Positions 22,277 through 37,798 of a stretch of DNA of 64,000 bases are shown here, in pieces. The stretch comes from Actinomycetota bacterium (lineage in GTDB: Bacteria > Actinomycetota > Actinomycetes > Mycobacteriales > JACQDL01). The stretch covers positions 36,708 through 100,707 of the forward strand of contig JACQDL010000001.1 of the NCBI GenBank assembly GCA_016201065.1, read 5' to 3'. Positions within the stretch are counted from its first letter, which is position 1. Each line of letters starts with the position of its first letter. The notes under the pieces were generated by a model. It was not told where the DNA came from, ran no database searches, and saw only the letters and a program-made list of their open reading frames with translations. The position numbers and the translations under genes were made by a program.

Positions 22277-23838
22277 CCGCGACGCGGGCCGTCGTGGCAG
22301 CTCTCCGCCGAGAACCCTCACTGCGGGGGGTGCGGCTCACCGGCCTGACCGGCTCGCTGCTGCTGGTGTTCGGCTCGCTGGGGGCGGGCGCCCTCCCCGC
22401 GTACGACCCGGTGGCCCAGATCCCGCTGATCTCGGTGCTCCGCCGCGGAGCCGGACCGACGGTGGCCCTGGGGCTGACCTACCTCGGCGCGGCGACCCTC
22501 ACCCTGGCCTGGCTGTACCTCGGCCGGGTGGTGCGCTCCGGGCCTTCCGGCGCCGGTACCGCGGTCCGCGACCTGCTCCGCATCGGCTGGTGGTGGGGCG
22601 GCCCACTGCTGGTCGCCGTTCCGCTGTTCAGCCGTGACCTGTACAGCTACGCGGCCCAGGCGCAGATCACCCATGCCGGCCTCGACCCGTACTCGGTGGG
22701 CCCGCTCTCGCTGCCCGGGCCGTTCCTGGACGAGGTGGAGCAGCTCTGGGTGAACACGCCGGCGCCGTACGGGCCGCTGTGGCTGACCCTCGGACGGATG
22801 GTCGCGATCGTCACCCGGGACCACGTCGTGCTCACCGTCCTGTCCATGCGCCTGATCGCCGCCGGCGGCGTGCTGCTCACCGCACGGTTCCTGCCCAGGC
22901 TTGCCACCGCCTGCGGCGGCGACCCGCGGCTCGCGGTGTGGCTCAGCCTGCTCAACCCGCTGCTGCTGATCCACTTCATCGGTGGGGGGCACAACGACGC
23001 GCTGATGCTGGGCCTGGTGGTCGCCGGCCTCACGGTGGCCATGGAGGTCACACCCGGGTCCGACCGTGCGCGGCGTCGGCTGGCTCTGGCCGTGGTGCTG
23101 TGCACCCTGGCAGTGCTGATCAAGGTGCCGGCCGCGCTCGCGGTCGGGTTCCTGGTACCGATCTGGGCGGCCCGGATCAGGGCCGAGCGCCCATGGCTCG
23201 CCGCGACGGTCCGGGTCACCGGACTCGCCGTGCTGACCTTCGTGCTGGCCACCCTCGCCACCGGGCTCGGGATCGGCTGGATGCGGCAGCTCAACGGCGC
23301 GGGTGAGGTGGTGAACTTCCTGTCGATCCCGACCGGCCTGGCGATGGCGTTCAACGCGCTGCGTGGCGTGACCCGACTGGTCGATCCGGGCAACGCGACG
23401 ATCGCCGCGTTCCGGCTCGGGGGGCAGGCCATCACGGCGGTCATCGGGATCGTCCTGTGGACGCGGTCCTACCGGCTGCACCCGGTCCGGGCGCTCGGCG
23501 TGGCCCTGCTGGTGCTCGTCATGCTCGGCCCGGTCGTCCAGCCGTGGTACCTGATGTGGCCGCTGACCCTGCTCGCCGTGGCGCCGCTGGGGCAGCGCGC
23601 CGTGCTCGGGCTCGCCTGGATGTGCGCCTGGTTGGTGCTGCTCGTCTCGCCGCAGGGCGCGGCGCTGCTGCTCAACTGGACGCCGGTGATCGTCGCCGGG
23701 CTGGCCGCGGCGGTGGCGACCGGAACTCTGCTGAACTCACCCCCGCCGCCAGCCACGGAGCTCGATCTGCCGGAGCCGGCCGCCGCCGTACCCGCCGCCA
23801 GCGAGCCAGCGGCGGCACCGCACCCCCGGGTGGGTTGA
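22273..23838 (+). CDS. MptA/MptB-type mannosyltransferase, copy 2
   Basis: GTGA overlap with copy 1; LFSRDLYSYAAQA, TPAPYGPLWL, GGGHNDALM, VVQPWY. Confidence 0.85.
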   Translation: MTATRAVVAALRREPSLRGVRLTGLTGSLLLVFGSLGAGALPAYDPVAQIPLISVLRRGAGPTVALGLTYLGAATLTLAWLYLGRVVRSGPSGAGTAVRDLLRIGWWWGGPLLVAVPLFSRDLYSYAAQAQITHAGLDPYSVGPLSLPGPFLDEVEQLWVNTPAPYGPLWLTLGRMVAIVTRDHVVLTVLSMRLIAAGGVLLTARFLPRLATACGGDPRLAVWLSLLNPLLLIHFIGGGHNDALMLGLVVAGLTVAMEVTPGSDRARRRLALAVVLCTLAVLIKVPAALAVGFLVPIWAARIRAERPWLAATVRVTGLAVLTFVLATLATGLGIGWMRQLNGAGEVVNFLSIPTGLAMAFNALRGVTRLVDPGNATIAAFRLGGQAITAVIGIVLWTRSYRLHPVRALGVALLVLVMLGPVVQPWYLMWPLTLLAVAPLGQRAVLGLAWMCAWLVLLVSPQGAALLLNWTPVIVAGLAAAVATGTLLNSPPPPATELDLPEPAAAVPAASEPAAAPHPRVG

Positions 23839-23844
23839 CCGACG
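23830..23844 (+). repeat. 15-bp direct repeat, left copy (GTGGGTTGACCGACG); includes the stop codon of mannosyltransferase copy 2
   Basis: Identical to 37105-37119; bases differ immediately on both sides. Confidence 0.85.
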
Positions 23845-23889
23845 ATGTCTTGGCCTGGCTGGACCGCATCGTGCGGCAGGACCCGAACA
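23835..23889 (+). pseudogene. 5' fragment of RelE/ParE-superfamily (HigB/Gp49-like) toxin interrupted by the IS605 element
   Basis: LTDDVLAWLDRIVRQDPN joins in frame with 36538+ (SHRRVVYAIEALAEAGPNLGRPLVD). Confidence 0.85.
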
Positions 23890-23924
23890 TTGACTTCTTC
23901 CCGGCCGTGAACGGCCGGGATTCC
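23890..23924 (-). mobile_element. IS605 right end: GR guide GAAT, hairpin CCCGGCCG-TTCA-CGGCCGGG, cleavage tetramer TCAA
   Basis: Minus strand GGAATCCCGGCCGTTCACGGCCGGGAAGAAGTCAA; same GAAT/TCAA pair as IS608. Confidence 0.9.
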
Positions 23925-23935
23925 TCCAGTGCCGC

Positions 23936-24652
23936 TCATGCGGCACCTCGGCGGGTTCCTGCTTCGCGGGCAACCGCCGGGACGGGTCCCGGTCTCACGT
24001 CGCCTCCGCAGGCGTTGCTGTCCGCCAGCCCGGCGGCCAGTCTGCGACCCTCGACCAGGATGTTCCTGGCCGCGTTCACGTCGCGGTCGTGCTCGGTGCC
24101 GCACACGCGACAGGTCCACGCCCTGACGTCGAGGGGTTTCGGCCCGTCCCGGCGCCCGCATGCCGAGCACTGTCGGCGACGACGGGAACCAGCGGCCGAC
24201 CTTGGCGCGGTTCGCCGGGCCTCTCTCCTTGCGTGCCAGCTGGCGTTGGAGCCGGGCGAGCTTGCGGGACTTGCGGCGCAGGTGGCTCGGGTTCGCCACG
24301 ATCTCCCCGCCGGAGGTGGAAACCAACCGGTCCAGACCGAGGTCGATCCCAACGTCGTTCAGGCTGGCAGGTAGTGGTCGGTCAGCGACCTCAACAACGA
24401 ACGAGGGCGAGCCAGTTCCGGTAGGCGCGTCGGGCGTCCTGGCATGCCTGCACCAGCGCGACCGAGGCGACCTCGCCCAGCCACACCCGTTCTCCGGTGA
24501 GCTTGGCGAGGGTCACGACGCGGCGTTGCACCTGCGTGTCGGAGATCTTCCCCCCCGGCCGCGTGGGCGTCCTGGCGGGTACGGAGCGCGTCGTTGAACA
24601 CCACTCGAGCACACCCGAACGTGCGGGCCAGCATCTCCCGCTGGTCGGGTAC
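23936..24652 (-). pseudogene. tnpB: TnpB (IS200/IS605 RNA-guided nuclease) remnant with internal deletions and frameshifts
   Basis: Fragments QREMLARTFGCARVVFND; KISDTQVQRRVVTLAK...ALVQACQDARRAYRNW; SFVVEV...VGIDLGL (RuvC-I); NRAKV|GRWFPSS; CSACG...WTCRVCGTEHDRDVNAARNI (Zn ribbon, RuvC-III). RuvC-II region is missing. Confidence 0.92.
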
Positions 24653-24830
24653 CCGCCGACCGTGCGCCTCTCCCGGCTGGTGAACTCCCCCAACGGCGTC
24701 TCCGCCAGCAGTTCCGGTTGCGCACCCACCGCGAGCACCTATGGTTGCCGTCGTACTTCGCTGTGTCTTGCGGCGGCACCCCCTGTCGATCATCGGGGAG
24801 AACGTGGAGCAGCAGCGACGGCCCGCCTGA
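24650..24830 (+). pseudogene. tnpA: C-terminal fragment of TnpA (Y1 HUH transposase)
   Basis: YPPTVRLSRLVNSPNGVS, then frameshift to HLWLPSYFAVSCGGTPLSIIGENVEQQRRPA*. The usual catalytic Tyr position reads AAC (Asn) at 24801-24803; the HUH half is deleted. Confidence 0.85.
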
Positions 24831-24840
24831 ACAGCACCGG

Positions 24841-24853
24841 CTACCCCGGCCCT
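24841..24853 (-). mobile_element. Inner half of the IS605 left-end hairpin (...CCCCGGCCCT)
   Basis: Completes the hairpin CCCGGCC-CTGAAC-GGCCGGG when joined to 36503+ through the shared CCCT. Confidence 0.75.
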
Positions 24854-24901
24854 AAACCGCAGCGTCCCTGGTCACCCACGCTGTTGTGGCGCTCGTTTCG
24901 C

Positions 24902-24948
24902 CCCGTAGCGGTGGGCGTGGACGGTCCCGCCACGCCCACCGCTACGGG
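24902..24948. terminator. 19-bp perfect inverted repeat, probable terminator downstream of the small HTH gene
   Basis: CCCGTAGCGGTGGGCGTGG (24902-24920), 9-nt loop, CCACGCCCACCGCTACGGG (24930-24948). Confidence 0.7.
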
Positions 24949-25022
24949 TTCACCCGCGACCCGAAGCCCTGCGGCGTCCGGGGCCCGGGGAGCCGCCGCC
25001 CACCCGGTGGGCTGGTCGGTCA

Positions 25023-25436
25023 CTACCGGTCCTGACCGGCGTCGCGACCAAGGCCAGGCCACGCCGCGACGTAGCTCGCATCCATCCCGGCCGGTGCCGA
25101 CCGAGATGGCTCACCGTCCGATGCGTCGCAGTGGGGGTGGGTGCACCACGCCACCCCCAGCAGTCCCGGTGGTATGCCCAACCCGTTGGCGATTCGTGCC
25201 AACACCGCCCGTGAGATCACCCGGCGACCGTTGACGATCGCGGACACCTCCGGTTGTTCGTGTCCGGTCAGCTCACCGATCGCACGCTGGCTGTATCCGT
25301 ACGCACCGAGCAGCCGATACACCGCCCCGACGTCCTGGGCGGTCAACGCCGACCGCATTACCGGCTCGCACCACACCCCGGGTGGTGGCTGGCCCGACGG
25401 CGCGAGTCGACGGGGTGCTCTGCCGGCGGGTGACAT
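25023..25436 (-). CDS. Stand-alone XRE-type HTH protein, paralogous to the N-terminus of the divergent regulator
   Basis: VWCEPVMRSALTAQDVGAVYRLL...SQRAIGELTG.EQPEVS.IVNGRRV...VLARIANGLGIP aligns by eye with residues ~14-90 of 25957-27321. Confidence 0.8.
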   Translation of the reverse strand: MSPAGRAPRRLAPSGQPPPGVWCEPVMRSALTAQDVGAVYRLLGAYGYSQRAIGELTGHEQPEVSAIVNGRRVISRAVLARIANGLGIPPGLLGVAWCTHPHCDASDGEPSRSAPAGMDASYVAAWPGLGRDAGQDR

Positions 25437-25444
25437 CCCTCGGA

Positions 25445-25672
25445 TCACGACACCACGCGCCCCTGGCCGTGCCCCGAGGCGGTGCGCAGCACCAACCGAA
25501 CTTCCCGCTGGGTCATCCGCAATCCACGGGCGATCCGCTCCGCTGGGCAGCCCTCCGCAGCCAGCCATGTGATCTGAGCGACGGCCTCCGGCGCGACGAC
25601 GATATTAGGAGATGTTCGAGATTTGGCCTGGCAGGGGTCGTGGGCCTGGGAACTTGCTGAACCGTGACGCAT
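25445..25672 (-). CDS. Small hypothetical protein (75 aa), possible HTH
   Basis: GGAGG SD before ATG 25672; AEGCPAERIARGLRMTQREVRLVL resembles a helix-turn-helix. Confidence 0.5.
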   Translation of the reverse strand: MRHGSASSQAHDPCQAKSRTSPNIVVAPEAVAQITWLAAEGCPAERIARGLRMTQREVRLVLRTASGHGQGRVVS

Positions 25673-25956
25673 ACCGTTTCCTCCCTGTGATCCGGTGGTC
25701 GGCGGCATCGCGGCGGACAGGGCGATACCCGAGGACCCGGCTCCGCCGCTCGGATCACCCGGTGGCGGGTGGAACTCCGGTGATCAGATTTCGCTGACAC
25801 ACCGCAGTGGGTAAGCCTCACTGCTAGTGCGCTTGAACGGTTGGTCGCGACGCCTAGTCGCGCTAGTCGCCTTGGCCTGTCGGGGATTCCGGACATGAGG
25901 GTGCGGCAGCTAGCCTGCTGGGACAGAATCGACCACCGGACGGCAGGCGGGATCAG

Positions 25957-27321
25957 ATGAACGTTGATCAGCACTCGACCGGCCAGGTCGCGCCGACGGT
26001 CTGGGAGCACCGTGAGATGCGGATGGCGTTGGCGTTCCGCGACCTGAAGGCCGTCTACGAACGCCTCCAGCGGGTGGGGGTGTCCCAGCGCCACATCGCT
26101 CGCCTGACCGGCCAGAGCCCGTCCGAGGTCTATGAGATCCTCAAGGGCCGCCGCGTCATGGCCCACGACGTGTTGGTGCGGGTCGCCGACGGATTGGGCA
26201 TCCCGCGCGGATACATGGGCCTCGCCTACGACGAATCAACGGAAATAGCCCTCGACCTGGCGACGGCGACGTGCTCTGGGAACGCCGACGAGCGGGACGA
26301 AGTCAGGCGGCTCCTCCGGCATGCCGCGAACGTCGCGATGGGTACTTCCGTTGAGGACGTCGCCCACTGGTGGCAACCCATCGACCGGCAGGTCGCGCCC
26401 GCGCCCACCGGCATCGGAATGCGCGACGTGGAGCACGTCGAGACGCTCACCGCCGCGATGCGTGCCCTGGACTACCGGTACGGCGGAGGAGCCTGCCGTG
26501 ACGCGGTAGCCGCCCACGTGCGGTGGACACAGCAACTCCTCACCGCATCCTGCGCCGACCGGACCCGTACCCGCCTGCATCGAGCGTTGGCAGACCTGCA
26601 CAATCTCGCGGGCTGGACCTCATTCGATGTCGGCATGTACTCCATTGCGCGAAAACATTTCGCACGCGCCCTCGAACAGGCCAAACACGCCGGAGATCTG
26701 TCGCTGGCCGCGAACGTGCTGTACCGCACGGGACGGCTCCACCTCCACCGTGGCATGCCCCGTGAGGCGCTGCGCTTCTTCCAGCTGGGGCAGATCACCG
26801 TCCAGGACAGTGGTTGCGGGCTGACGGTGGCGATGCTGTGCGCCAACGAAGGATGGGCCTACGCGTTGCTCGGCGACCGACCGCAGGTCCGGCGCTCGCT
26901 CGGGCGCGCCCGGGACGAGTTCACCCGCGCCGACCGCACCTCAGCTCCGGCCTGGGTGCGTTTCTTCGGCGATGCGGACCTGCACGCCTCCATTGGAGTG
27001 ACCTACTCCTCACAAACCAACGCGACCGCCAGTGAACTGACGCAGGCGATCGACCACATCAATCAGGCCATTGGGCTGCGGGGACCGGACATGACGCGCA
27101 GCCTGGTTTTCGAGCGGACCGCCCTCGCGGTGGCGCACCTGCGGGCCGGAAACCGGGACGTGGGGCTGGCGGTGGGACGCGAGGCGACCGCCTCCGGTGT
27201 TCGTTCGCTGCGCACCCTGGATCGGCTCGAACCGTTGCAGAGCATCGCCGCCACGCGCCACGGCGATACCGCCCTCGAGGATCTGGGGCACCAGATCGCG
27301 AGCTTGCGAGCGGCGTCGTGA
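25957..27321 (+). CDS. XRE-family transcriptional regulator with C-terminal TPR-like domain
   Basis: N-terminal HTH (VSQRHIARLTGQSPSEV), D..YGGG, LADLHNLAGW..FDVG, AWVRFF..ADL. Confidence 0.88.
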   Translation: MNVDQHSTGQVAPTVWEHREMRMALAFRDLKAVYERLQRVGVSQRHIARLTGQSPSEVYEILKGRRVMAHDVLVRVADGLGIPRGYMGLAYDESTEIALDLATATCSGNADERDEVRRLLRHAANVAMGTSVEDVAHWWQPIDRQVAPAPTGIGMRDVEHVETLTAAMRALDYRYGGGACRDAVAAHVRWTQQLLTASCADRTRTRLHRALADLHNLAGWTSFDVGMYSIARKHFARALEQAKHAGDLSLAANVLYRTGRLHLHRGMPREALRFFQLGQITVQDSGCGLTVAMLCANEGWAYALLGDRPQVRRSLGRARDEFTRADRTSAPAWVRFFGDADLHASIGVTYSSQTNATASELTQAIDHINQAIGLRGPDMTRSLVFERTALAVAHLRAGNRDVGLAVGREATASGVRSLRTLDRLEPLQSIAATRHGDTALEDLGHQIASLRAAS

Positions 27322-28238
27322 CCGGCGGCGCAGGCACCGCCGGTCACGCGACTTCCACCACGGTCCCCGACACGCTTCGGATCGCGCTCCACGACGTCTG
27401 CGCAACAGCGGGTCTCGACCCGACCGGAGCACAGTTGATCAAGTTCACCAACAACGCCGTGTTCGAACTGGCTGGAGCACCAGTGGTGATCCGTATCGCC
27501 GGGTCGCAGACGGCGCGCGACCGGGTCCCCACAGTGATCACAGTGGCACGCTGGCTCGCCGCGCACGACATGCCCAGCGTGCGGCTCGACCCTCGCGTGG
27601 ACCAACCGGTCCGGTCCGGAGGCCACCTGGCAACCCTGTGGCGACAGGTACCGAACATCGGCCCCGCCCCCACCGGCACCGACCTTGGGCGGATCCTTCG
27701 CCGCTACCACGCGCTGCCCCCGCCCGAGCAGCCGCTGCCCACCTGGCGTCCACTGCGGCCAATACGGCAGCGTCTCACCGAAACCGACATGCTCAGCGAC
27801 AGCGACCGCGAGTTCCTGGACGCGACGTGCGACGAGCTTGAAGACGCACTGAGCCGTCTGGATTGCCAACTCCCACCCGGACCGATCCACGGCGACCCTT
27901 TCCTCGGCAACCTGATACCCGGACCCGGCGGGCCGGTGATCTGCGATTTCGATTCTGCGGCCAACGGCCCACGGGAGTGGGATCTCACTCCCGTGGCCGT
28001 TGGTGGACTTCGGTTCCGCTACGTGGGCGAGGCGCCCACCCAACTCGCCCACGCCTACGGAACGGACCTGACCAGGTGGCCCGGCTTCACGGTGTTGCGA
28101 AAGCTTCGTGAATTGCAGCTCGTCACCAGTGTCGTGCCGGTCCTGCGACGCAACCCGGCGCTTACCGAACAGTGGCGCCATCGATTTACGACATTCCGCG
28201 ACCAGGATCACGCCGCGGTCTGGACCCCCTACCGGTAG
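27318..28238 (+). CDS. Aminoglycoside-phosphotransferase-like (APH/choline kinase fold) protein
   Basis: GTGA overlap; TNNAVF.L, IHGDPFLGN (Brenner motif), CDFD...GPREWDL. Confidence 0.88.
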   Translation: MTGGAGTAGHATSTTVPDTLRIALHDVCATAGLDPTGAQLIKFTNNAVFELAGAPVVIRIAGSQTARDRVPTVITVARWLAAHDMPSVRLDPRVDQPVRSGGHLATLWRQVPNIGPAPTGTDLGRILRRYHALPPPEQPLPTWRPLRPIRQRLTETDMLSDSDREFLDATCDELEDALSRLDCQLPPGPIHGDPFLGNLIPGPGGPVICDFDSAANGPREWDLTPVAVGGLRFRYVGEAPTQLAHAYGTDLTRWPGFTVLRKLRELQLVTSVVPVLRRNPALTEQWRHRFTTFRDQDHAAVWTPYR

Positions 28239-28320
28239 CCGGCGCTGACCCGCTGATCCAGACCATCGGCACCAACCCTCGGGCCGGCGCGGTCCGGGAA
28301 CCTCGAGATGGAGGACACCC

Positions 28321-28479
28321 ATGTCCAGCAGCACATTGCCGCAGCACCCGACCGTATGCACGGACGGGTTCGACCTGGACGTCACCGTGTTGGAGGTGGC
28401 TGATCCGGCCGGCCTGGTCAATGTGACCGACGACGGTTGCACCAGTACATGCGGAGCCTGTGTCACCAACATGGCCTGA
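28321..28479 (+). CDS. lanA: FxLD-family class I lanthipeptide precursor, 52 aa (not in the ORF track)
   Basis: GGAGG at 28310-28314; MSSSTLPQHPTVCTDGFDLDVTVLEVADPAGLVNVTDDGCTSTCGACVTNMA*; FDLD leader motif, Thr/Ser/Cys-rich core, directly upstream of lanB. Confidence 0.93.
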   Translation: MSSSTLPQHPTVCTDGFDLDVTVLEVADPAGLVNVTDDGCTSTCGACVTNMA

Positions 28480-28509
28480 TCGATCACCCGCCCACCGGTC
28501 GACGCGGTC

Positions 28510-31500
28510 GTGTCCGGTCTCCATCCGATACGTCTACCGGGCGTGAACCGGTCTGACCCGCCACGGGAGGTCGTCTTGCCGCCGTACGCTCGTCAGCCCG
28601 GGTACCGGGTCGCTGGTGCGGCACTCCTCCGCGCCACCGCCCACCCGATGCCGGAGGTCCCGCCGTGGCCGGACCTGGCCGACTCGACACCCGGGGCAGC
28701 CGCAGCCGGCGTGACCTGGCTTCGACAGGTCTGGGCGATCGACCACCTCGCCGACGCGATCGAGCACGCCAGCCCGGCGCTGGACCGGCAGGTACGGGCG
28801 CTGTGCGCCGCCGAGGTTCCCCCGGCTCGAAAGACCCGGCGTGCGGTGCTGTCGGTGGTGCGGTACCTGCACCGCATGACGGGGCGAGCCACGCCGTTCG
28901 GTTTGCTGGCGGGTGTCGCGTCGGCGAGTTTCGCGTCGCCCGCTCAGGTGCGGTGGGGTACCGACCACCGGCCTGTAGCCCGGGCCGCGGCGGAGTGGCT
29001 TGCCGGTGTGCTGGCGCGGTTGGAGGACTGCCCCGAACTTCTCGCCCGGCTGCCGGTGGTCGCCAACACCACACTGATGGTGCGTGGGGACCGGCTGGTC
29101 GTGCCGTATCAGCCGCAGGCCCGCGCCCGGGGGATCGGCGCGGTGGAGGTCTCGCTGCGGTACACCGCCGTCGTGCACGCCGTCATCGAAGCAGCCAGCA
29201 CACCGATCCAGATGGAGGATCTGGCCGCGACAATCCAGGCCGACCATCCGACGGCGCCCGGGGCGAAGATCACCGCGATGCTCACCGAACTGGTCCAGCG
29301 TGGTGCGCTGCTCACCAGCGTTCGCGCACCCAGCACCGAGCCGGACGCCTTGGGGCATCTTGTGGACCAGTTGGACGCGGTCGGCGCCCCCACCCTTGGC
29401 GCGGTCGGTGGGCTGGCCACGGCGGTGCGGGAGGTCCACTCAATGCTTGAGCGGCACAACCAGACGCCCGCCGCTGAGGGACGCCAGATCCGGGTAGCAG
29501 CCTCCACCCGGATGCGTGAGCTGGCGCCCACCACACGGCACCCCTTGGCGTTGGACCTTCGGCTCGACGGGACCTTCGTTCTTCCCGAGCAGGTCGCGCG
29601 GGAGGTCGAACACGCCGCGTGGGTGCTGACCCGGTTGAGCGCCTATCCGGTGGGGACGCCGACGTGGCGCGGCTACCACCAGCGGTTCTACGAACGGTTC
29701 GGTATCGGTTCGCTGGTTCCGCTGCGTGAGGTGATCGGCGACAGCGGCATCGGCTGGCCTGACGGCTACCCGGGTACGGTCGTACCAGAGCCCCGTTCGC
29801 CGATGTCGAGCCGGGACGAGACCCTGCTGGGGTTGGCCCAACGCGCCGCCCTCGACGGCCTCGACGAGGTTGTCGTGGATGAGCACCTGATCTCGGCGCT
29901 GCGGCTGGGGCCGACGCAGCACCGCCCACCGGCGCATCTGGAGATCGGTGTCCGGATACGTGCCACAAGCCACGCGGCCATGGCGTGCGGTGACTTCCTG
30001 ATCGAGGTGCTCAACGTCTCGCGTGCGGCTGGCGTGCTGACCGGACGGTTCCTCAGCGTCCTGGACCCCGAGGGCCGGACCGGCCTGGCGCGTACCCTCA
30101 CGGATCTGCCCGGTACCGACGGTGACACGGTGGCGGCACAGCTGTCGTTCCCGCCACTGGACCCCGCGACCGCGCACGTCACGCGGGCGATGCCGATCCT
30201 GCCCACCGTGGTCAGTCTTGCCGAGTACCGCACCGCTGACGAGCGGGTCTTGACCATCGACGATCTCGCGGTGGGCTGCGACGGCCACCGGATGTACCTG
30301 GCGGCGCCGGCCCGTGGACTGCGGGTGGAGGCCGCGGGTGCGCATGCGCTGAACCTCAAGACCCACACCCCGCCCCTCGCCCGGTTCCTGATCGAACTCA
30401 GCCGGGCGCAGTGCGCGCAGGTCACAGTGTTCTCCTGGGGCGCTGCCGGGTGCCTGCCGTTCCTGCCACGGTTGCGCTACGGCCGTACCGTCCTGTCCCC
30501 GGCGCGGTGGCGGCTGGAGGCATCCGACCTCCCGGCCCGCGGGGCGCCGTTGGTCGCCTGGGAGCGTGCCCTGACCGTGTGGCGGGCGCAGCGGCGGGTA
30601 CCGGGCCTGGTGTATCTGGCCGAAGGGGACCGGCTGCTGCCACTGGACCTGGACCGCTGCGGGCACCGTGTCCTGTTGCGCACCCACCTCGCCTCGACGC
30701 CGCACGCGGTGCTGATCGAAGCCCCCGGCGTTCACGACACCAACGACTGGTGCGGCGGGCGCGCCCACGAACTCATCGTTCCGGTCGTCGCCACCGAACC
30801 GGCATCGTGGCCGCCGCTGCCGACACCGACCGGCGCACGCGTCGTCGGCCGCGAGCACACCCACACGCCTGCCGTCTGCGGGGTCATGCTGGCCAGCCTG
30901 TACGGGGATGTCCACCGCCAGGACACCATCTTGTCCGGATACCTTCCCGCGCTGCTGGCCGAGTTCGACGAACCCGCCTGGTGGTACATCCGCTACCGCG
31001 ATCCCGACCACCACCTGCGGCTACGGTTCGCGTTGACCGACCCGGCGAGGTTCGGTGAGATGGCCCGCGCGGTCAGCACCTGGGCGGAGGAACTCAACCG
31101 GATCGGATTGGTGCGCGACCTGCGGTACCCGACATCCCATCCGGAGATCGGGCGCTGGGGATCGGGCCCGGCCTGGGCTGCCGCGGAGGAGGTGTTTCGC
31201 GCCGACTCCCGGGCCCTGCTGGTTCAGCTGGGCCAACTGTGCCACCCACACCGGCTGGCACTCACGGCCGCCCACACAGTCGCCATCACGATCGCGTTCA
31301 CCGGCAGCGCGACCGCCGGCATGCGGTGGCTGTTGGACCATGTGCCGGCCACCGCCCCGACGCCGGTGCCGCGGCCGGTCTTCGCCGAGGCTGTTCGCCT
31401 GGCTGATCCCCGCGGCGGTTGGGCGTGTCTGCGCGCCGCACCTGGTGGGGCGGCGATCCACGACGTGTGGCCGCCGCGCGAGACGGCTCTGGCCGCCTAC

Positions 31501-31683
31501 CGCCGCCACCTCGACGGCCCACACACCCAGGGCATCGCCGTCGATGACGTTCTCCGGTCCCTCCTGCACGCCAACTTCGTGCGCGCCAGCGGCATCGACT
31601 TCGACGGCGAAGCCACCGGGTTGTACCTGGCCCGTGCCGCGGCCCTCGCCTGGACGGCCCGCACGACAGGCCGTCAGCCATGA
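28510..31683 (+). CDS. lanB: Lanthipeptide dehydratase (glutamylation and elimination domains), 1057 aa
   Basis: YLHRMTGRATPFGLLAG, LPFLPRLRYG..VL.PARW, C-terminal WWYIRYRDPDHHLRLRF, YP...E..RWG. Confidence 0.94.
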   Translation: MSGLHPIRLPGVNRSDPPREVVLPPYARQPGYRVAGAALLRATAHPMPEVPPWPDLADSTPGAAAAGVTWLRQVWAIDHLADAIEHASPALDRQVRALCAAEVPPARKTRRAVLSVVRYLHRMTGRATPFGLLAGVASASFASPAQVRWGTDHRPVARAAAEWLAGVLARLEDCPELLARLPVVANTTLMVRGDRLVVPYQPQARARGIGAVEVSLRYTAVVHAVIEAASTPIQMEDLAATIQADHPTAPGAKITAMLTELVQRGALLTSVRAPSTEPDALGHLVDQLDAVGAPTLGAVGGLATAVREVHSMLERHNQTPAAEGRQIRVAASTRMRELAPTTRHPLALDLRLDGTFVLPEQVAREVEHAAWVLTRLSAYPVGTPTWRGYHQRFYERFGIGSLVPLREVIGDSGIGWPDGYPGTVVPEPRSPMSSRDETLLGLAQRAALDGLDEVVVDEHLISALRLGPTQHRPPAHLEIGVRIRATSHAAMACGDFLIEVLNVSRAAGVLTGRFLSVLDPEGRTGLARTLTDLPGTDGDTVAAQLSFPPLDPATAHVTRAMPILPTVVSLAEYRTADERVLTIDDLAVGCDGHRMYLAAPARGLRVEAAGAHALNLKTHTPPLARFLIELSRAQCAQVTVFSWGAAGCLPFLPRLRYGRTVLSPARWRLEASDLPARGAPLVAWERALTVWRAQRRVPGLVYLAEGDRLLPLDLDRCGHRVLLRTHLASTPHAVLIEAPGVHDTNDWCGGRAHELIVPVVATEPASWPPLPTPTGARVVGREHTHTPAVCGVMLASLYGDVHRQDTILSGYLPALLAEFDEPAWWYIRYRDPDHHLRLRFALTDPARFGEMARAVSTWAEELNRIGLVRDLRYPTSHPEIGRWGSGPAWAAAEEVFRADSRALLVQLGQLCHPHRLALTAAHTVAITIAFTGSATAGMRWLLDHVPATAPTPVPRPVFAEAVRLADPRGGWACLRAAPGGAAIHDVWPPRETALAAYRRHLDGPHTQGIAVDDVLRSLLHANFVRASGIDFDGEATGLYLARAAALAWTARTTGRQP

Positions 31684-32954
31684 CCAGCGAACACCTCGCC
31701 AGCGCCATGGCCGGCGCCGTCGCCGATCGACTGGCGCGCCCCGATACCGTGCCCACGCACCTGACCGAGGCGATCTGGTGGCGGCAATCCCTGGCGCATG
31801 GCGCGCCCGGAATCGCGCTGCTACACGTCGAGCGCGCCGCCGCCGGACTCGGACCATGGGAGCGGGCACACGACTGGCTCGCCTACACGGCGCGCGCCGC
31901 GCTCACCACCGGACCCGACAGTCACCTGTTCTACGGCGCCCCAGCCCTCGCCCACGTCCTCGCCTGCGCCGCCGCGCACCGGCCCGGCGCCTACACCCGG
32001 GCGCTGGCCCGCCTTGACCACGCCATTGCCGTCGACACCCACAACCGAGTCGGTGACGCCCACGCCCGCATGGACCGGGGCGAGCTGCCCGCCCTCGCCG
32101 ACTTCGACGTGATTCGAGGTCTCAGCGGTGTCGGCTCCCTGCTGCTGCGCCGCGACCCCCACGGCCTGGCGCTGCACGCCGTCCTCGACTACCTCGTCCG
32201 GCTCACCGAGCCCGTGAGGGGCGACGGGCAGGCCCTGCCCGGCTGGTGGACCACGTCGAGTCCCTCCGGGCGCGACAGCGGCCAGTTCCCCGGAGGCCAC
32301 GGCAACACTGGTGTGGCACACGGCATCGGTGGTGTGCTCGCCCTGCAGGCGCTCGCAACTCGACACGGCATCACCGTGGACGGCCAGCGGGAGGCCATGG
32401 GACGGATCTGCGCCTGGCTGGACCGGTGGCGCACCGACACCGGCGCGGGCCCAGTCTGGCCGTACTGGGTCAACCTCGCTCACCTGCGCGCCGGACACCA
32501 CGACACCACCGACCGGCAGCCACCGAGCTGGTGCTACGGCACCGCCGGCCTGGCCCGGGCCCAACAACTGGCCGCCATGGCCACCGGTGACACCCACCGC
32601 CAAGACTTCGCCGAACGCGCACTGGTCCAGGCCCTATCGGGTGTCGTTCAACGCTCCACCACGACGAATGCCTCCCTATGTCATGGCTACGCCGGGTTCG
32701 CCCACATCGCCAGTATCGTGGCGGCCGACGCCAGCACCGATGCCGCTGCGGCACTGCGGGCACTGACCCAAGACCTGCTGAACGCGCTCCAACCCGCCGA
32801 CGTCGATCCCGCCGAGACCGCCGCCCGCCTCGTTCGCGGCGACGACGGACCGGGATTCCTGGAAGGCGCCGCCGGGATCGCGCTGGCGGTCCTGGCTCCC
32901 AGCGCCGCGACCCGGCCCCAAACCGGCTGGGACACCTGCCTGCTCATCACCTGA
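31680..32954 (+). CDS. lanC: Lanthionine synthetase C (cyclase)
   Basis: FDVIRGLSG, GVAHGIGG, SWCYGTAG and LCHGYAG (Zn ligands Cys/Cys/His intact), FLEGAAG. Confidence 0.94.
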   Translation: MTSEHLASAMAGAVADRLARPDTVPTHLTEAIWWRQSLAHGAPGIALLHVERAAAGLGPWERAHDWLAYTARAALTTGPDSHLFYGAPALAHVLACAAAHRPGAYTRALARLDHAIAVDTHNRVGDAHARMDRGELPALADFDVIRGLSGVGSLLLRRDPHGLALHAVLDYLVRLTEPVRGDGQALPGWWTTSSPSGRDSGQFPGGHGNTGVAHGIGGVLALQALATRHGITVDGQREAMGRICAWLDRWRTDTGAGPVWPYWVNLAHLRAGHHDTTDRQPPSWCYGTAGLARAQQLAAMATGDTHRQDFAERALVQALSGVVQRSTTTNASLCHGYAGFAHIASIVAADASTDAAAALRALTQDLLNALQPADVDPAETAARLVRGDDGPGFLEGAAGIALAVLAPSAATRPQTGWDTCLLIT

Positions 32955-32985
32955 GCAACACCCCACCCCACCGTCTGCGAAGGAG

Positions 32986-35088
32986 ATGCCGCACCCGATG
33001 CCACCGACCCCCTGGCGCCAGTACAACGTCGAGTTTCCCGATCGGGCGACCGCGGCGTGGACCGCCGCGCACGACCTCCACCCGGCGTTGACCGCGGCAC
33101 AGGAGACCGGTGCGCTTCACGGGTGGTGGTTCGTGCGTAAACAACCCTGGAAGCTCCGATACCTACCCGACGACCCCGACTCCCGTGTGATCACCGAACT
33201 GTTGGACACGCTCACCACGCAGGGCCGGGTCGCCGGGTGGGCGGTGGGGACCTACGAACCCGAAACGCGGGCCTTCGGCGGTGACGCCGCGATGGACGTC
33301 GCCCACGCGCTGTTCCACCGCGACAGCCACCACATCCTGGCCCGCGCCGCGCAGGCCAACGGCGCGCTCCCGTGGCGGCGGGAGACCACGGTCCTGTTGT
33401 GCAGTGCCATGCTGCGCGCCGCGGGGTTGGACTGGTACGAGCAGGGCGACGTCTGGTCGAAAGTCGCCGCGTTGCGCCCCGACACACCCACGACCACCAC
33501 CACCGGACGAGCCACGGCACTGGTGGGGTCCATGCGGCAGCTCATGGCCACCGACACCCGCACCTTGTGCGCACCCGGTCGTGGTCCCCTCGCCGGCTGC
33601 GGCAGCTGGCTGGACGCCTTCGAGAGCACCGGGTACCAGCTGGCGGAGCTGGCACGGCACGGCGAGCTGACCCGGGGACTACGCGCCGTCCTCGCCCACC
33701 ACGTCATCTTCCACGCCAACCGCGCCGCGCTACCCGCAGCTGACCAGGCCACCCTGGCCGGGTTGGCGGTCGACGCCGTCTTCACCTCCACCGACGACCC
33801 CGTGTCGCCACTCACCGCGACACCACCACCCACTAAGGTGCCCGAAATGACCACTGTCCGTGACGACATCCCCGCCGCGTCCGCCGACCAACTGCGCCAC
33901 GATCTCACCACCCGGCTACATGGAATGAACGCCATTCGGACCCCCGCCATCGAAGCGGCCTTCCGGCGGACACCGCGACACCTGTTCCTTCCGGGTCTAC
34001 CGGTGGAGCAGGCATACGCCGACACCCCCATCTACACCAAGCAGGATGCCTGTGGCGCGTCGATCAGCGCGGCCTCCCAACCATGGATGGTCGCGGGCAT
34101 GCTCGAACAGCTCGACGCCCAACCCGGCGAGCGGATCATGGAAGTCGGTGCGGGCACGGGATACAACGCGGCGCTGCTCGCCGCGGTCGTCGGCGCGCCC
34201 GGTCACGTCACCACGATCGACGTCGACGACGACCTCGTCACCGCTGCCCGACAGCACTTGAGCGCCGCCGGCGTCGGCAACGTCGACGTCGTCCTCGGCG
34301 ATGGCGCGCTGGGGCATCCCGAAGGCGCCCCCTATGACCGGATCATCGCCACGGTGGGCGCCTACGAGACACCCACCGCGTGGCTGGAGCAGCTCGCACC
34401 CGGCGGGCGTCTGGTCGTTCCGGTCCGGCTGCGCGGCACCACCTCCCGCTCCATCGCCTTCGAGCGCGACACCCACGCCTGGGTCAGCCGGGGCTCCAAG
34501 CTGGCGGTCTTCATGCCGCTGCGCGGGATCGCCGACGACGCCCGGCGGATCGTCGCGCTCACCCCCGAGCAGGATGTGACACTGCAGGTCAACAAGGACC
34601 ATCTGGTTGACGACCCGGCCCTGGTGGGAGTGTTGGACACCACCCGGCATGAGGAATGGTCCGGTGTGCACCATCCACCCAACGTTCCGTTCGAGTGGAT
34701 GGAACTGTGGTTGTGCCTGCGCCTGGACAATCCCCTCATGCGCATGAACACCCAACCCTCGGCGGCCGACCGTGGCCAGGTCACCCCCATGTTCCCGTGG
34801 GGTTCCATGGCCACCACCCGAGACCATGACCTTGCCTACCTCACCATCCGACCAGCACCACCGGCCAGTGACGGCGGGAAGCTGTACGAGGTCGGCGTCA
34901 TCGGCCACGGACCCGACGGCAGCAGCCTCGCGCAGCGCGTCGCCGAGGAGATCCGGACCTGGGACGGCCAATTCCGTGGCCGTGGCGCCCGATTCGAAAT
35001 CCCCGACACGCCCACCACCAACGACCCGGCAGCCGGTCGATTCGTCCTGGACCGACCCCACCACCCCATCACCGTCATCTGGGAATGA
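32986..35088 (+). CDS. Fusion of a Lant_dehydr_C-like glutamyl-lyase domain and a PIMT-like O-methyltransferase (FxLD system)
   Basis: N-terminal WWFVRKQPWKLRY, YEPE...FGG..AMDVAHALFH.DS, HHVIFHANR. C-terminal AFRRTPRHLFLP, SAASQP, MEVGAGTGYNAA (SAM), YDRIIATVG, PGGRLVVP. Confidence 0.92.
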   Translation: MPHPMPPTPWRQYNVEFPDRATAAWTAAHDLHPALTAAQETGALHGWWFVRKQPWKLRYLPDDPDSRVITELLDTLTTQGRVAGWAVGTYEPETRAFGGDAAMDVAHALFHRDSHHILARAAQANGALPWRRETTVLLCSAMLRAAGLDWYEQGDVWSKVAALRPDTPTTTTTGRATALVGSMRQLMATDTRTLCAPGRGPLAGCGSWLDAFESTGYQLAELARHGELTRGLRAVLAHHVIFHANRAALPAADQATLAGLAVDAVFTSTDDPVSPLTATPPPTKVPEMTTVRDDIPAASADQLRHDLTTRLHGMNAIRTPAIEAAFRRTPRHLFLPGLPVEQAYADTPIYTKQDACGASISAASQPWMVAGMLEQLDAQPGERIMEVGAGTGYNAALLAAVVGAPGHVTTIDVDDDLVTAARQHLSAAGVGNVDVVLGDGALGHPEGAPYDRIIATVGAYETPTAWLEQLAPGGRLVVPVRLRGTTSRSIAFERDTHAWVSRGSKLAVFMPLRGIADDARRIVALTPEQDVTLQVNKDHLVDDPALVGVLDTTRHEEWSGVHHPPNVPFEWMELWLCLRLDNPLMRMNTQPSAADRGQVTPMFPWGSMATTRDHDLAYLTIRPAPPASDGGKLYEVGVIGHGPDGSSLAQRVAEEIRTWDGQFRGRGARFEIPDTPTTNDPAAGRFVLDRPHHPITVIWE

Positions 35089-35089
35089 C

Positions 35090-36217
35090 ATGCACCGCAC
35101 CGGGCCGATCGCCCGCCGCTTCCCCCTCGTGGCCCGCGCCCGCCCACCGTGCCCGCCGCTGGCAGACCGGGTCGACCGACTGCGCGCACTCGCCGACACA
35201 GCCGACCAGAACGACGACCTCGCCACCGCCTCCGCCGTCTTCAACCAGGCGGCGCTGCTCGCCTCGGACTGCGGTCTACCCGACCTGGCCAGGCAGTGGT
35301 GCCACCGGCACACCGGTGTCCACCTGCGGGCGCTGCCTGTGGACGCGCGGGCGGCCCGCCACGCCCTGGAACCCATCGTCAACCTCGCCCGCCTGCACAT
35401 CCGGGCAGGCCACGGCGACACCGCATTCCACCTCTTGGACTCCCTCTTCGAGGCGGTCGATGCCCGCACTGATGTCGTCATCGACGGTGTGTCGCTGCCC
35501 ATCACCCAGCTGACCCGGACAGCCACCGACCACCGAGAACTCCGCCAGTGGCTGTGGACCGTTCACCTCGCCGACGGCAGCCGCGCCCTCACCAGCATCG
35601 GCCGCTGGCAGGACGCCCACGAGCACCTGCACCGCCGACACGGCATCGGCACACGGATGCTCGACGGCCGCCAGGTTGCGGTCATCACCCACCTCACCGC
35701 GGACAACCACGCGCACGCCAAAGCACTGATCGACGGCACCGCAGCCGGCGAGCCCTGGGAGTCCGCCGTGACCAGATGCCTGGCCGCACTGTGCCACGCA
35801 GACGGTGACCACGCGACCCTCAACGACATCACCGCCATGCTGGAGGGCTACCGACCACTCCCCCCCACCCCCAGCCTGGCCGTGTTCCACGGCCGGTTGT
35901 GCCTGTCCGTCATCGACGCGGCCGGTGGCATCAGGCATCCCGGTGCACGCGACCTCGCCAACACGCTGATCCAGCAGACGCGGGCCTCCCGCGACGGGTA
36001 CCTCACACGCGACGTACTCGCCCACGACGGCTGCGTCACAATGCTCACCAACGACCAACGGCGCGACCTCGGTGAGATGCTCAAGGCCACCGCGCTGGGA
36101 CTCCGGGACATCCCCACGCAGCTGTACGCACGCCTCACGGCGGCATTGGACACCAGCGAAGCCGTGCTGGCGCGCACGTTGGCCGCGCGACCGCAGCGCA
36201 CCCGGTCTGTCAGGTAG
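35090..36217 (+). CDS. Conserved hypothetical protein coupled to the FxLD cluster (helical/TPR-like)
   Basis: ATG 1 nt after the methyltransferase stop; RFPLVARARPPC.PL..RV, AVFNQAALLASDCG.PDLA, LEP.VNLARL; 375 aa intact. Confidence 0.75.
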   Translation: MHRTGPIARRFPLVARARPPCPPLADRVDRLRALADTADQNDDLATASAVFNQAALLASDCGLPDLARQWCHRHTGVHLRALPVDARAARHALEPIVNLARLHIRAGHGDTAFHLLDSLFEAVDARTDVVIDGVSLPITQLTRTATDHRELRQWLWTVHLADGSRALTSIGRWQDAHEHLHRRHGIGTRMLDGRQVAVITHLTADNHAHAKALIDGTAAGEPWESAVTRCLAALCHADGDHATLNDITAMLEGYRPLPPTPSLAVFHGRLCLSVIDAAGGIRHPGARDLANTLIQQTRASRDGYLTRDVLAHDGCVTMLTNDQRRDLGEMLKATALGLRDIPTQLYARLTAALDTSEAVLARTLAARPQRTRSVR

Positions 36218-36273
36218 CGGCCGGCTGACGGTGGAGGGTCGTTCGCGTAGGTGGGCTCGGCCGCTGGGCTCAG

Positions 36274-36502
36274 CGGCAGCTGCCAGCGACCAGGAGCGGC
36301 CGTTGACGACGACATCCGCCCCACCAGCAGACCATCATCATCCGTCGGTTGCACGACGGCGACGAACAGGGACGGCAGCGCCGTGGCCTCCGGAACCCAC
36401 CGCAGGGCGAAGTGCCGGTAGGTCACCCGTGCCCAGGACAGGACCATGCTGTGGGGTCCCTCCCACTCCAGCCCCGCGCACGCCACCACGGGCCCGTCGA
36501 AA
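36274..36502 (-). pseudogene. NUDIX-type hydrolase internal fragment, cut at the cargo boundary
   Basis: FDGPVVACAGLEW...TYRHFALR...LLVGRMSSSTAAPGRWQLP stops just before where the Nudix box (GG..E) would be expected; no start. Confidence 0.65.
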
Positions 36503-36541
36503 CCCTGAACGGCCGGGCTTGCGCCAGCAAAGAAGGGGTCA
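36503..36541 (-). mobile_element. IS605 left end, outer half, plus target tetramer TGAC (36541-36538)
   Basis: Minus strand TGAC|CCCTTCTTTGCTGGCG-CAAG-CCCGGCCGTTCAGGG. CAAG predicts TGAC under the IS608 guide/target pairing rule. Confidence 0.85.
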
Positions 36542-36842
36542 CCGACGAGTCGTCTACGCCATCGAGGCCCTCGCCGAAGCAGGGCCCAACCTGGGCCGGC
36601 CGCTCGTAGACCGGGTCAAGGGCTCCACAGTGCACAGCTTCAAGGAACATCGACCTGGCTCGGCAGGCACCAGCGAGATCAGGGCCCTGTTCGTGTTCGA
36701 CCCCTGGCGTTCGGCGATCGTGCTGGTCGCCGGAGACAAGGCCGGCAACTGGAACGGCTGGTACCGCCAAGCCATCCCGCGCGCCGAGGAGCTGTAGGCG
36801 ATCTACCTGGAGGAACGAGCCCACGAGGAGAGTGCACCGTAG
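36538..36842 (+). pseudogene. 3' part of RelE/ParE-superfamily (HigB/Gp49-like) toxin, with a premature TAG at 36795
   Basis: HRRVVYAIEALAEAGPNLGRPLVDRVKGS...E.RPGSAGTSEIRALFVFDPWRSAIVLVAGDKAGNWNGWYRQAIPRAEEL*AIYLEERAHEESAP*. Confidence 0.88.
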
Positions 36843-37113
36843 GCGACACCCGCTGGTCGCAGATCCGCAACAAGCACATCGCCGCGGCCTGACTCAACGC
36901 GACATCGCGGCCGTCATGGGCGTCACCGTCGGCCGGGTCTCCCAGATCGAATCGGGCGACGTCTCCGGCATTGACGTCCTCGACCGCTACGTCACCGCCA
37001 TCGGCGGCCTGCTGGAGATCGTCGCCAACTTTGGCGACGAACAATTCAAGGGAGGACGTCGAGGGTGTCCAGGCCCCGTTGGGTGGCGGATCTGGTTCCT
37101 CACTGTGGGTTGA
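36839..37113 (+). pseudogene. HigA-like HTH antitoxin remnant (internal deletion, no clear start)
   Basis: DTRWSQIRNKHIAAA, then a frame change to RGLTQRDIAAVMGVTVGRVSQIESG...LDRYVTAIGGLLEIVANFGDE. Confidence 0.8.
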
Positions 37114-37119
37114 CCGACG
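37105..37119 (+). repeat. 15-bp direct repeat, right copy (GTGGGTTGACCGACG)
   Basis: Identical to 23830-23844. Confidence 0.85.
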
Positions 37120-37135
37120 GACGCGCACCCTCTAC

Positions 37136-37161
37136 CTTTGTTGAACGTTCGCTAAACAAAG
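37136..37161. promoter_or_regulatory. Imperfect palindrome, probable TetR autoregulatory operator
   Basis: CTTTGTT-GAACGTTCGCTA-AACAAAG, AT-rich, ends 7 bp before the TetR start. Confidence 0.6.
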
Positions 37162-37168
37162 GGGTACC

Positions 37169-37798
37169 GTGGGGCGCCGACCGACCTGGACCGAACCGGA
37201 TCTGCTCCGAGCGGTGATGGCGGTGTTTCGCCGCAGGGGCTTCGCCCGGACATCCATCCGCGACCTGGCGGAGGCGACGGGCCTGCATCCGGGCAGCCTG
37301 TACCAGGCGTACGGCAGCAAGGAAGGCTTGTTCGCGGCGGCGGTCACCACCTACAACGAGCTGGTGGTCGAGCACCGGGTGCGCACCCATCTCGACGAGG
37401 CCGAGCCGCCGCTGCGCGGAATCGACACGTTCTTCGCCTCGACCTTCGACGACGACGGCGACGACGACTCCGCTGCCGACGGACCCAACCCGGGGTGCCT
37501 GCTGACGAACACCGCTGTCGAGGCGCACCTGCTACCCGGCACCAGTCGCGACGGGGTCGCCGCGGGCCTGAACCTGATCGAGCAAGGGTTCCAGCGAGTG
37601 CTGGAGCGCGCCCGCCAGGCCGGGCAGATCAACCCCACCGCCGCGACCGACCAACTCGCCGCCCAGCTGCTTGCCCTCTACCAGGGCGTGCTGGTGTTGG
37701 TGCGGTTCGGCGCGCCCACGACGAAGCTCGCCGCCATCGTCGCCCACGCCGTTCCCGCGATCATCGCATCCGGCCACCACGCGGAAGGATCGACCTGA
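37169..37798 (+). CDS. TetR/AcrR-family regulator
   Basis: F.RRGFARTSIRDLAEATGLHPGSLYQAYGSKEGLF; GCLLTNTAVE. Confidence 0.92.
   Translation: MGRRPTWTEPDLLRAVMAVFRRRGFARTSIRDLAEATGLHPGSLYQAYGSKEGLFAAAVTTYNELVVEHRVRTHLDEAEPPLRGIDTFFASTFDDDGDDDSAADGPNPGCLLTNTAVEAHLLPGTSRDGVAAGLNLIEQGFQRVLERARQAGQINPTAATDQLAAQLLALYQGVLVLVRFGAPTTKLAAIVAHAVPAIIASGHHAEGST

Follow-up and report, generated by a model that had tools for sequence, protein, structure and literature searches.

The question raised by this locus is whether a 12.6-kb interruption of a toxin gene is one transposon, an insertion sequence (IS) of the IS605 type with a biosynthetic gene cluster on board, or the product of more than one event. 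The locus lies in contig JACQDL010000001.1 of assembly GCA_016201065.1 (Actinomycetota bacterium), at positions 23890-36537 of the window, by which we mean the whole 64,000-nucleotide stretch analysed (contig positions 36,708 to 100,707). The source genome is a groundwater metagenome bin of 3.65 Mb, 98% complete, and its species is the sole member of its genus. A preliminary description took 23890-36537 for a single insertion. We conclude that it is two nested ordinary insertions, an IS once of ~1.8 kb (now 995 bp) and a later arrival of 11,653 bp, and that the IS is a decayed member of a known family, not one giant transposon. The fuller history that we favour, at a probability of roughly 85%, has three successive insertions followed by decay: a toxin-antitoxin module, an IS at a TGAC in the toxin gene, and a lanthipeptide cluster in the left-end hairpin of the IS. 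It is built on what can be seen directly at the locus, namely both IS ends, a precise empty site, a split hairpin, an end-to-end alignment with a sister element and the gene content.

Ends of the IS and the interrupted toxin gene

Read on the minus strand from 23923 to 23890, the right end is GAAT CCCGGCCG TTCA CGGCCGGG AAGAAGTCAA. It consists of a predicted guide, GAAT (23923-23920), an intact hairpin, CCCGGCCG-TTCA-CGGCCGGG (23919-23900), and a 10-nt tail, AAGAAGTCAA (23899-23890), which closes with the cleavage tetranucleotide TCAA (23893-23890). The 20-nt hairpin occurs once in the 3.65-Mb genome, and the same right-end architecture is present in sister elements. On the same strand, the outer part of the left end (36506..36537) comprises a linker, a guide, a 5' hairpin arm and the start of a loop. 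The 20-nt linker CCCTTCTTTGCTGGCGCAAG (36537-36518) ends in the predicted guide CAAG (36521-36518) at the hairpin foot, with CCCGGCCGTTCA next; the 5' arm CCCGGCC occupies 36517-36511, and the loop GTTCAG, from 36510 onwards, continues into a duplicated GGG (36505-36503). Immediately outside stands the target tetranucleotide TGAC (36538..36541, minus strand), which is host sequence within the Ser-His codons of the toxin. The preliminary description had placed both ends, with their hairpins, guides and target, correctly to the base.

In IS608 of Helicobacter pylori, 19 nt separate the hairpin from the left cleavage site and 10 nt from the right one, the guides are 4 nt long, and both cleavage sites have T at -4 and A at -2 (PMC3201880). 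The window IS agrees with IS608 in having subterminal hairpins instead of inverted repeats, in inserting with no target duplication, in a left cleavage site formed by a host tetranucleotide ~19-20 nt 5' of the hairpin foot, in a right guide GAAT with the end TCAA 10 nt past the foot, and in the T at -4 and A at -2 of both cleavage sites (PMC3201880). The reading of GAAT/TCAA as guide and target, made in the preliminary description, is identical to IS608, and CAAG/TGAC fits the pairing rule applied there. The two elements differ in that the window has TGAC/CAAG where IS608 has TTAC/AAAG, in that tnpA and tnpB are divergent in the window, as in IS605, and co-directional in IS608, and in that the window hairpin is G+C-rich and the copy dead, with its left hairpin split. 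Both ends of the window IS have subterminal hairpins without terminal inverted repeats, albeit with the left arms 11.6 kb apart; the 4-nt sequences 5' of each hairpin foot would pair with the cleavage sites, and the element sits 3' of a specific tetranucleotide, running from TGAC to its own TCAA with neither duplication nor loss of target.

Between the ends lie remnants of both genes expected of the IS200/IS605 family, in the order left end, tnpA (reversed), tnpB, right end. The tnpB pseudogene (23975..24664, minus strand) retains pieces of HTH_OrfB_IS605 (E 5e-12), OrfB_IS605 (E 1.5e-10) and a zinc-ribbon, Cas12f1-like TNB domain (E 1.4e-11), and is broken by frameshifts and two internal deletions of ~230 nt each. 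The tnpA remnant (24617..24830, plus strand, divergent from tnpB; stop TGA at 24828-24830) is the frameshifted C-terminal half (residues ~77-152) of a Y1 HUH transposase. A tblastn search with the one intact Y1 TnpA of the genome recovered it (E 3e-6), and Pfam detected it in no single frame; as DNA it aligns with the tnpA 3' ends of sister elements. The tnpA remnant is nonfunctional, and both genes are dead. We conclude that the two ends belong to one element and are genuine ends of the IS200/IS605 family.

The toxin gene is present as a 5' fragment (23835..23889, plus strand; LTDDVLAWLDRIVRQDPN plus the first base of a Ser codon) and a 3' fragment (36538..36797, plus strand) that ends at a premature TAG (36795-36797), followed by an HTH_3 (helix-turn-helix) antitoxin gene of 93 aa (36832..37113, plus strand). 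Joining 23889 to 36538 gives ...GACCCGAAC-AGT-CACCGACGA..., translated as ...RQDPN-S-HRRVVYAIEALAEAGPNLGRP... (in protein, ...RQDPN/SHRRVVYAIEALAEAGPNLGRP..., with the slash at the join). A check of this rejoined flank against toxin families, proposed in the preliminary description, gave a match in one stretch: the 104-residue product has a single Pfam Gp49 (PF05973) match across residues 12-103 (E 8e-16; 58.3 bits against a cut-off of 23.9), and with the adjacent HTH_3 gene this marks it as a Gp49/HigB-like type II toxin of the RelE/ParE superfamily. It has 464 homologues, mostly of 123-128 aa, several of them named RelE/ParE-family toxin in their sources. Aligned with ten full-length homologues (65-75% identity), it shows no gap or extra residue at the junction (for example DPN/SHRR in the window against DPD/SHRQ), which bears out the continuous frame and the lack of target duplication.

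The further claim that the empty site rebuilds a toxin gene holds in part. The frame is restored exactly, but 'gene' is an overstatement: the rejoined toxin lacks the first six codons of its homologues (M-x-W-E-I-Y), and the TAG at 36795-36797 stands where 10 of 10 aligned homologues have Tyr, cutting off ~17 residues; remnant codons (AIYLEERAHEE) follow downstream of it. Removal of the insertion accordingly leaves a frame with its start missing and a premature TAG, and to judge from these lesions the toxin would be a pseudogene even if the IS were absent.

A left-end hairpin in two halves

One point is absent from the ends as given in the preliminary description: only half of the left hairpin is there. 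The outer left end (36503-36537) has the 5' arm and the loop and no more; past CCCGGCCGTTCAGGG the minus strand continues as TTTCGACGGGCCCGTGG..., matching no sister element, and the outer end folded alone yields a weak, irregular structure. The missing half is found in the inner part of the left end (24831..24852, minus strand), where the 3' arm GGGCCGGGG (24852-24844) is followed by TAGCCGG. This arm (24844-24852) is 13 nt from the stop of the tnpA remnant, after which (TGA, 24828-24830) the plus strand reads ACAGCACCGGCTA-CCCCGGCCC and then, across the joint, TAAACC.... The motif after the hairpin is ACAGCCG or TTAGCC in sister elements, which show ...GTTCAGGGCCGGGTTAGCC... at the inner left-end position, and in an ordinary element the left end would lie ~100 nt past the tnpA stop, as in an intact element elsewhere in the source genome (C51, described below). 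Between the two halves stands the secondary insertion, 24853..36505 (plus strand; 11,653 bp). If it is excised together with one copy of a duplicated CCC, the minus strand reads ...GCAAG-CCCGGCC-GTTCAG-GGCCGGG-GTAGCC..., and the rejoined hairpin CCCGGCC-GTTCAG-GGCCGGG is identical to that of natural sister left ends. The rejoined IS is 995 bp long (23890-24852 plus 36506-36537).

Sister elements were sought by exact matching of a left-end 20-mer, GGCGCAAGCCCGGCCGTTCA, in 185,579 genomes, one per species. Of the 14 matches, nine are true IS left ends, in Rhodococcus artemisiae, Rhodococcus sp. HNM0563, Nocardia puris, Bifidobacterium magnum, Ilumatobacter and metagenome-assembled genomes (MAGs) of an Actinomycetota, a Streptosporangiaceae (two contigs) and an Acetobacteraceae; the other five are chance matches with neither TGAC nor a hairpin. 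A metagenome collection was also searched with the junction predicted for the rejoined element, CGGCCGTTCAGGGCCGGGKTAGCC (K = G or T), which returned 10 contigs, every one with T where the window has G. The six that were read all have intact left ends with TGACC upstream. Four (L060, L062, L065 and L068) continue into the 3' end of tnpA, and the rejoined left end aligns without gaps at the junction to these four intact sequences of left end plus tnpA; L063, a duplicate of the Streptosporangiaceae locus L046, has no tnpA, and none was identified in L067.

Altogether 15 sister left ends were read (nine genome and six metagenome loci). In each of them the hairpin is complete, directly following the 20-mer as CCCGGCCG-TTCA-CGGCCGGG or CCCGGCC-GTTCAG-GGCCGGG, and the putative guide CAAG is accompanied by TGACC 17-23 nt 5' of the hairpin foot. 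The expectation in the preliminary description that intact copies should follow TGAC was thus borne out in other genomes and metagenomes, and the combination of CAAG with TGAC derived there is conserved across the family, in all 15. These left ends, spread over several phyla, would make a clean natural case of the IS608 guide-to-target code operating with a different pair, CAAG-TGAC.

The most complete comparison is with an intact sister of 1,774 bp in an uncultured Actinomycetota MAG (L040; CAWHHY010000022.1, 4031-2258), to which the rejoined 995-bp element can be aligned over its whole length, terminal bases included. On its left this sister has TGAC and then C-linker-CAAG-hairpin; on its right it has GGAGGAAT-hairpin-AGGAAGTCAA with the guide GAAT. 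Against it the window IS lacks ~780 bp in total, in three large deletions (~271, 227 and 234 nt) and two small ones, which take out the 5' half of tnpA, the start of tnpB and parts of the RuvC region. Sisters of this type (Rhodococcus, Nocardia, Ilumatobacter, Bifidobacterium magnum, Streptosporangiaceae) have in common with the window the left block GGCGCAAG-CCCGGCCG-TTCA..., the target TGAC(C) and the right end GGAGGAAT-hairpin-A(G/A)GAAGTCAA; the window copy differs in its missing ~780 bp and in the 11,653 bp lodged in its left-end hairpin. The loop variant GTTCAG of the window is the one seen in the Streptosporangiaceae and metagenome copies. The closest tnpB relative (G109:C194, L031; 78% identity) has the same right end as the window IS, and no left end was recognisable at that locus.

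Could 23890-36537 nevertheless be one 12.6-kb IS605-type transposon that carried the lanthipeptide genes as cargo and moved in one step through TnpA? In its favour, the two ends are authentic and match in IS type, the flanks fit together exactly, and cleavage site, linker, guide, 5' arm and loop all survive in the outer left end. Its 3' arm, however, is not adjacent: past TTCAGGG there is no match to any sister, and the arm and its following motif are found 11.6 kb off, beside the tnpA stop, whereas all 15 sister left ends have the hairpin whole and the outer end alone folds poorly. A transposon with cargo should have two ends that fold and can be recognised by TnpA, and here the cargo itself interrupts the left hairpin. 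Y1 transposases recognise a folded hairpin (PMC3201880), and a 12.6-kb unit with a split one could not be recognised by Y1 TnpA. Nor did we find a second copy of the unit at any other target in the source genome, where the insert is single-copy, or in 40 related genomes. We therefore consider a single transposon very unlikely. The correction is of some consequence, as IS200/IS605 elements are small and one of 12.6 kb with a biosynthetic cluster would be remarkable.

A composite origin would reconcile a large mobile unit with the missing arm: two IS copies would have flanked the cluster, TnpA would have used the far left and the near right end, and later deletions would have stripped the second copy of its outer left end and left little of the first. 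The window element does have three large and two small deletions against the intact sister, and hairpins in the source genome appear deletion-prone: a second remnant in that genome (C6:168660-169560; 80-96% identity, 5'-truncated, with the zinc-ribbon region replaced) has lost from its right end exactly the hairpin (...GGAGG/AAGTCAA). Yet a composite requires two independent deletions that end at the same point of two hairpins and fit with a 3-bp overlap, and a second tnpA, tnpB or right end has left no trace inside 24853-36505. It is even less probable than the single transposon.

Finally, the left-end likeness of 36503-36537 might be due to chance, in which case a ~12-kb island would have arrived by another route and the IS remnant would merely lie at its edge. 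Chance matches to the 20-mer do occur, as the five lacking a hairpin among the 14 in public genomes illustrate. Here, though, the distance to TGAC is exactly 20 nt. That boundary is also, to the base, the point at which the toxin rejoins without a gap; at the opposite boundary stands a TCAA end of the same IS type, and removal of the insert restores a full sister-like element. Of the alternatives, coincidence is the one to which we give least credence. Nested insertion of an ordinary IS and, later, of the cluster accounts for both halves of the hairpin.

Several observations on related copies may be added. The hairpins of window-type elements in the source genome appear prone to deletion. The C6 remnant, the one close sister copy found within the genome, was considered and set aside, its 5' cut and lost right hairpin making it uninformative on left end and target. 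Miniature derivatives of the window-type IS were seen at L047:1323-1373 (Nocardia puris NZ_QNRE01000025.1), L042, L038, L046 and L063; the Nocardia puris unit of ~48 nt consists of left linker and guide, one hairpin and the right tail AGGAAGTCAA, with no genes. In the Streptosporangiaceae copies the left end is fused directly to a region resembling the tnpB 3' end and right end (GAAGCAGGAACCC...). A split left end, were it native to a sister, would read ...GTTCAGGGTTTCGACGGG....

Proposed order of events and entry of the cluster

The arrangement is not an artefact of the deposited assembly. Run-level assemblies from four groundwater samples confirm that the nested structure is real and was assembled independently in each. 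Two runs each have a single contig (26,039 and 17,596 bp) covering 24519-37200 with zero differences, including both joints of the insert and the joint between IS and toxin; in the other two the region is covered by overlapping contigs. Left-flank contigs cross the right-end junction, up to 23963, in three of the four runs (the X3 contig ends at 23772). The IS body is fragmented into short unitigs because a further remnant exists on C6, and read depth in the run-level assemblies is even across the locus.

The order in which these layers were laid down is inferred, and is probably as follows. A Gp49/HigB-HTH module, bracketed by exact 15-bp direct repeats, would first have come to lie at the 3' terminus of a gene for a host membrane protein. 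An IS200/IS605-family element of ~1.8 kb, with divergent tnpA and tnpB, would then have transposed into the toxin gene by the single-strand 'peel and paste' route, landing 3' of TGAC without duplication, with CAAG pairing to TGAC and GAAT to TCAA in the manner of IS608. As Y1 TnpA needs a folded hairpin (PMC3201880), this move should have preceded the splitting of the hairpin. In the third step, 11,653 bp with a complete FxLD class I lanthipeptide cluster would have entered the tip of the left-end hairpin, leaving its arms 11.6 kb apart and, at the joints, three base pairs (CCC) that are either duplicated or shared as microhomology. Decay would account for the loss of ~780 bp from the IS and for the toxin's missing six codons and nonsense codon. 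The locus would thus record three layers: a toxin-antitoxin module, an IS and a cluster.

The third layer, a cluster of 11.65 kb without a mobility gene, sits precisely at a hairpin tip. Its joints fall on the 3' side of the loop, and CCC is present at both (24850-24852 and 36503-36505), so that the limits of the insert may equally be given as 24850-36502; this CCC could reflect either duplication of the target or microhomology. The insert occurs once in the genome, and its G+C content is 70.2%, compared with 73% for the flanks. Its ends (TAAACCGCAGCG... and ...CCCGTCGAAACCC) share no word of 10 nt or more in either orientation, which leaves no terminal repeats, and a domain search of its genes revealed no recombinase or transposase. 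When these ends were searched in 40 related genomes they matched only paralogues of an XRE gene, and no donor locus was found. Our best guess at a mechanism would be breakage at the tip of the hairpin or cruciform, followed by illegitimate end-joining or microhomology-mediated recombination with a linear or circular DNA.

It is also conceivable that the FxLD block is a discrete cassette, lacking a recombinase of its own and inserted in trans at single-stranded hairpin or cruciform tips with a 3-bp duplication. We regard this as unlikely; if true, it would be a previously undescribed kind of cluster mobility, with IS ends as landing pads. Elements of the IS1397/ISKpn1 type insert into the loops of repetitive extragenic palindromic (REP) sequences, and the window resembles them in the insertion at a palindrome tip and the 3-bp duplication. 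Unlike them, the window insert lacks an IS3-type transposase as well as inverted repeats at its termini, and the resemblance is therefore one of outcome only.

Some points weigh against the history of nested insertions that we favour. The inner arm of the hairpin is short, and CCCGGCC by itself is expected by chance in G+C-rich DNA; we count it as evidence because of its position, its TAGCC motif and its alignment with the sisters. No Ku domain was found in this 98%-complete genome, leaving classical Ku-dependent non-homologous end joining of the insert unsupported. No genome or read set showed an intermediate state, be it the toxin gene interrupted by the IS alone or the same locus with its toxin gene uninterrupted; the syntenic comparison covered two genomes of the same family, neither of which shares the locus. 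An IS without the cluster would be marked by the junction ...GCCGTTCAGGGCCGGGGTAGCC... and an uninterrupted toxin by ...GACCCGAACAGTCACCGACGAG...; contigs of the four runs contain neither the 23889-36538 nor the 24852-36506 join, which is weak evidence because rare variants are dropped from contigs.

Contents of the insert and neighbouring features

The genes of the insert form a complete FxLD class I set of precursor, LanB, LanC and methyltransferase, all on the plus strand. The FxLD-family precursor (28321..28479, 52 aa; TIGR04363, 40.2 bits against a cut-off of 30) is followed by the LanB dehydratase (28510..31683, 1057 aa; Lant_dehydr_N, E 4e-209), the LanC cyclase (31680..32954, 424 aa; LANC_like, E 1.5e-43), a fusion of a Lant_dehydr_C-like domain and an FxLD-system O-methyltransferase (32986..35088, 700 aa; TIGR04364, 446 bits against a cut-off of 320) and a conserved 375-aa protein to which no function is assigned (35090..36217). 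The last, whose best homologue is 61% identical, is the final gene of such clusters in other actinomycetes. FxLD-family class I clusters have been surveyed previously (PMC7268733). The window cluster shares with clusters of this kind (TIGR04363/TIGR04364) the FDLD leader motif, and the gene order, from precursor through LanB, LanC and the Lant_dehydr_C-plus-PCMT methyltransferase to the 375-aa protein, is found again, with unrelated neighbours, in Sphaerimonospora cavernae and on a metagenome contig. It differs from them in its location inside an IS end and in that the insert has no transporter or protease gene.

Upstream of the precursor are an XRE-type HTH protein (25023..25568, minus strand, 181 aa; a multi-copy family in the genome), an NsdA-family HTH-TPR regulator (25957..27321, plus strand, 454 aa) and an APH-family phosphotransferase (27318..28238, plus strand, 306 aa). 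From 25023 to 36217, then, two HTH regulator genes and the APH kinase precede the precursor, and neither a transporter nor a leader-protease gene occurs. Nearer the joint is a REP-like element of ~100 nt (24895..24995, plus strand) with a perfect 19-bp palindrome (24902-24948). It has three more copies in the genome at 79-82% identity (C44:14030-14137, C52:77184-77275 and C26:3924-4016) and matched no Rfam family; the Rfam search of 23500-37300 gave spurious hairpin matches only. At the other side, a NUDIX-gene remnant considered at 36220-36504 (minus strand) was rejected for want of Pfam support. AAACC occurs at both ends of the insert (24853-24858, T-AAACC-GCAG...; 36498-36505, ...GTCG-AAACC-C), which may be chance, and the ends joined head-to-tail through their common CCC would give AAACCCTAAACC.

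The outermost layer is delimited by an exact 15-bp direct repeat, GTGGGTTGACCGACG, whose only two copies in the genome (23830..23844 and 37105..37119, both plus strand) bracket the whole module with its nested inserts. The left copy overlaps the first codons of the toxin remnant and holds the TGA stop of the upstream 939-aa membrane-protein frame; the repeat likewise supplies the stop of the antitoxin frame. Because it brackets the module and supplies these stops, the repeat suggests that the toxin-antitoxin module, too, arrived by insertion, at the 3' terminus of the host membrane-protein gene.

Other elements of the source genome are of different kinds. The intact IS605-type element at C51:92650-94480 contains the genome's only intact Y1 tnpA (C51:93920-94381) and a divergent tnpB; its right end, ...GAAT-C(T)CCGTCC-CTTA-GGACGG(C)G-AGAACGTCAA, also terminates in TCAA, and we rejected it as a sister of the window IS on account of its different hairpins. 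At C41:13227-15043 a tnpB stands beside a frame that, judged by eye, resembles an IS607-type serine recombinase, and C52:24255-25922 carries a tnpB.

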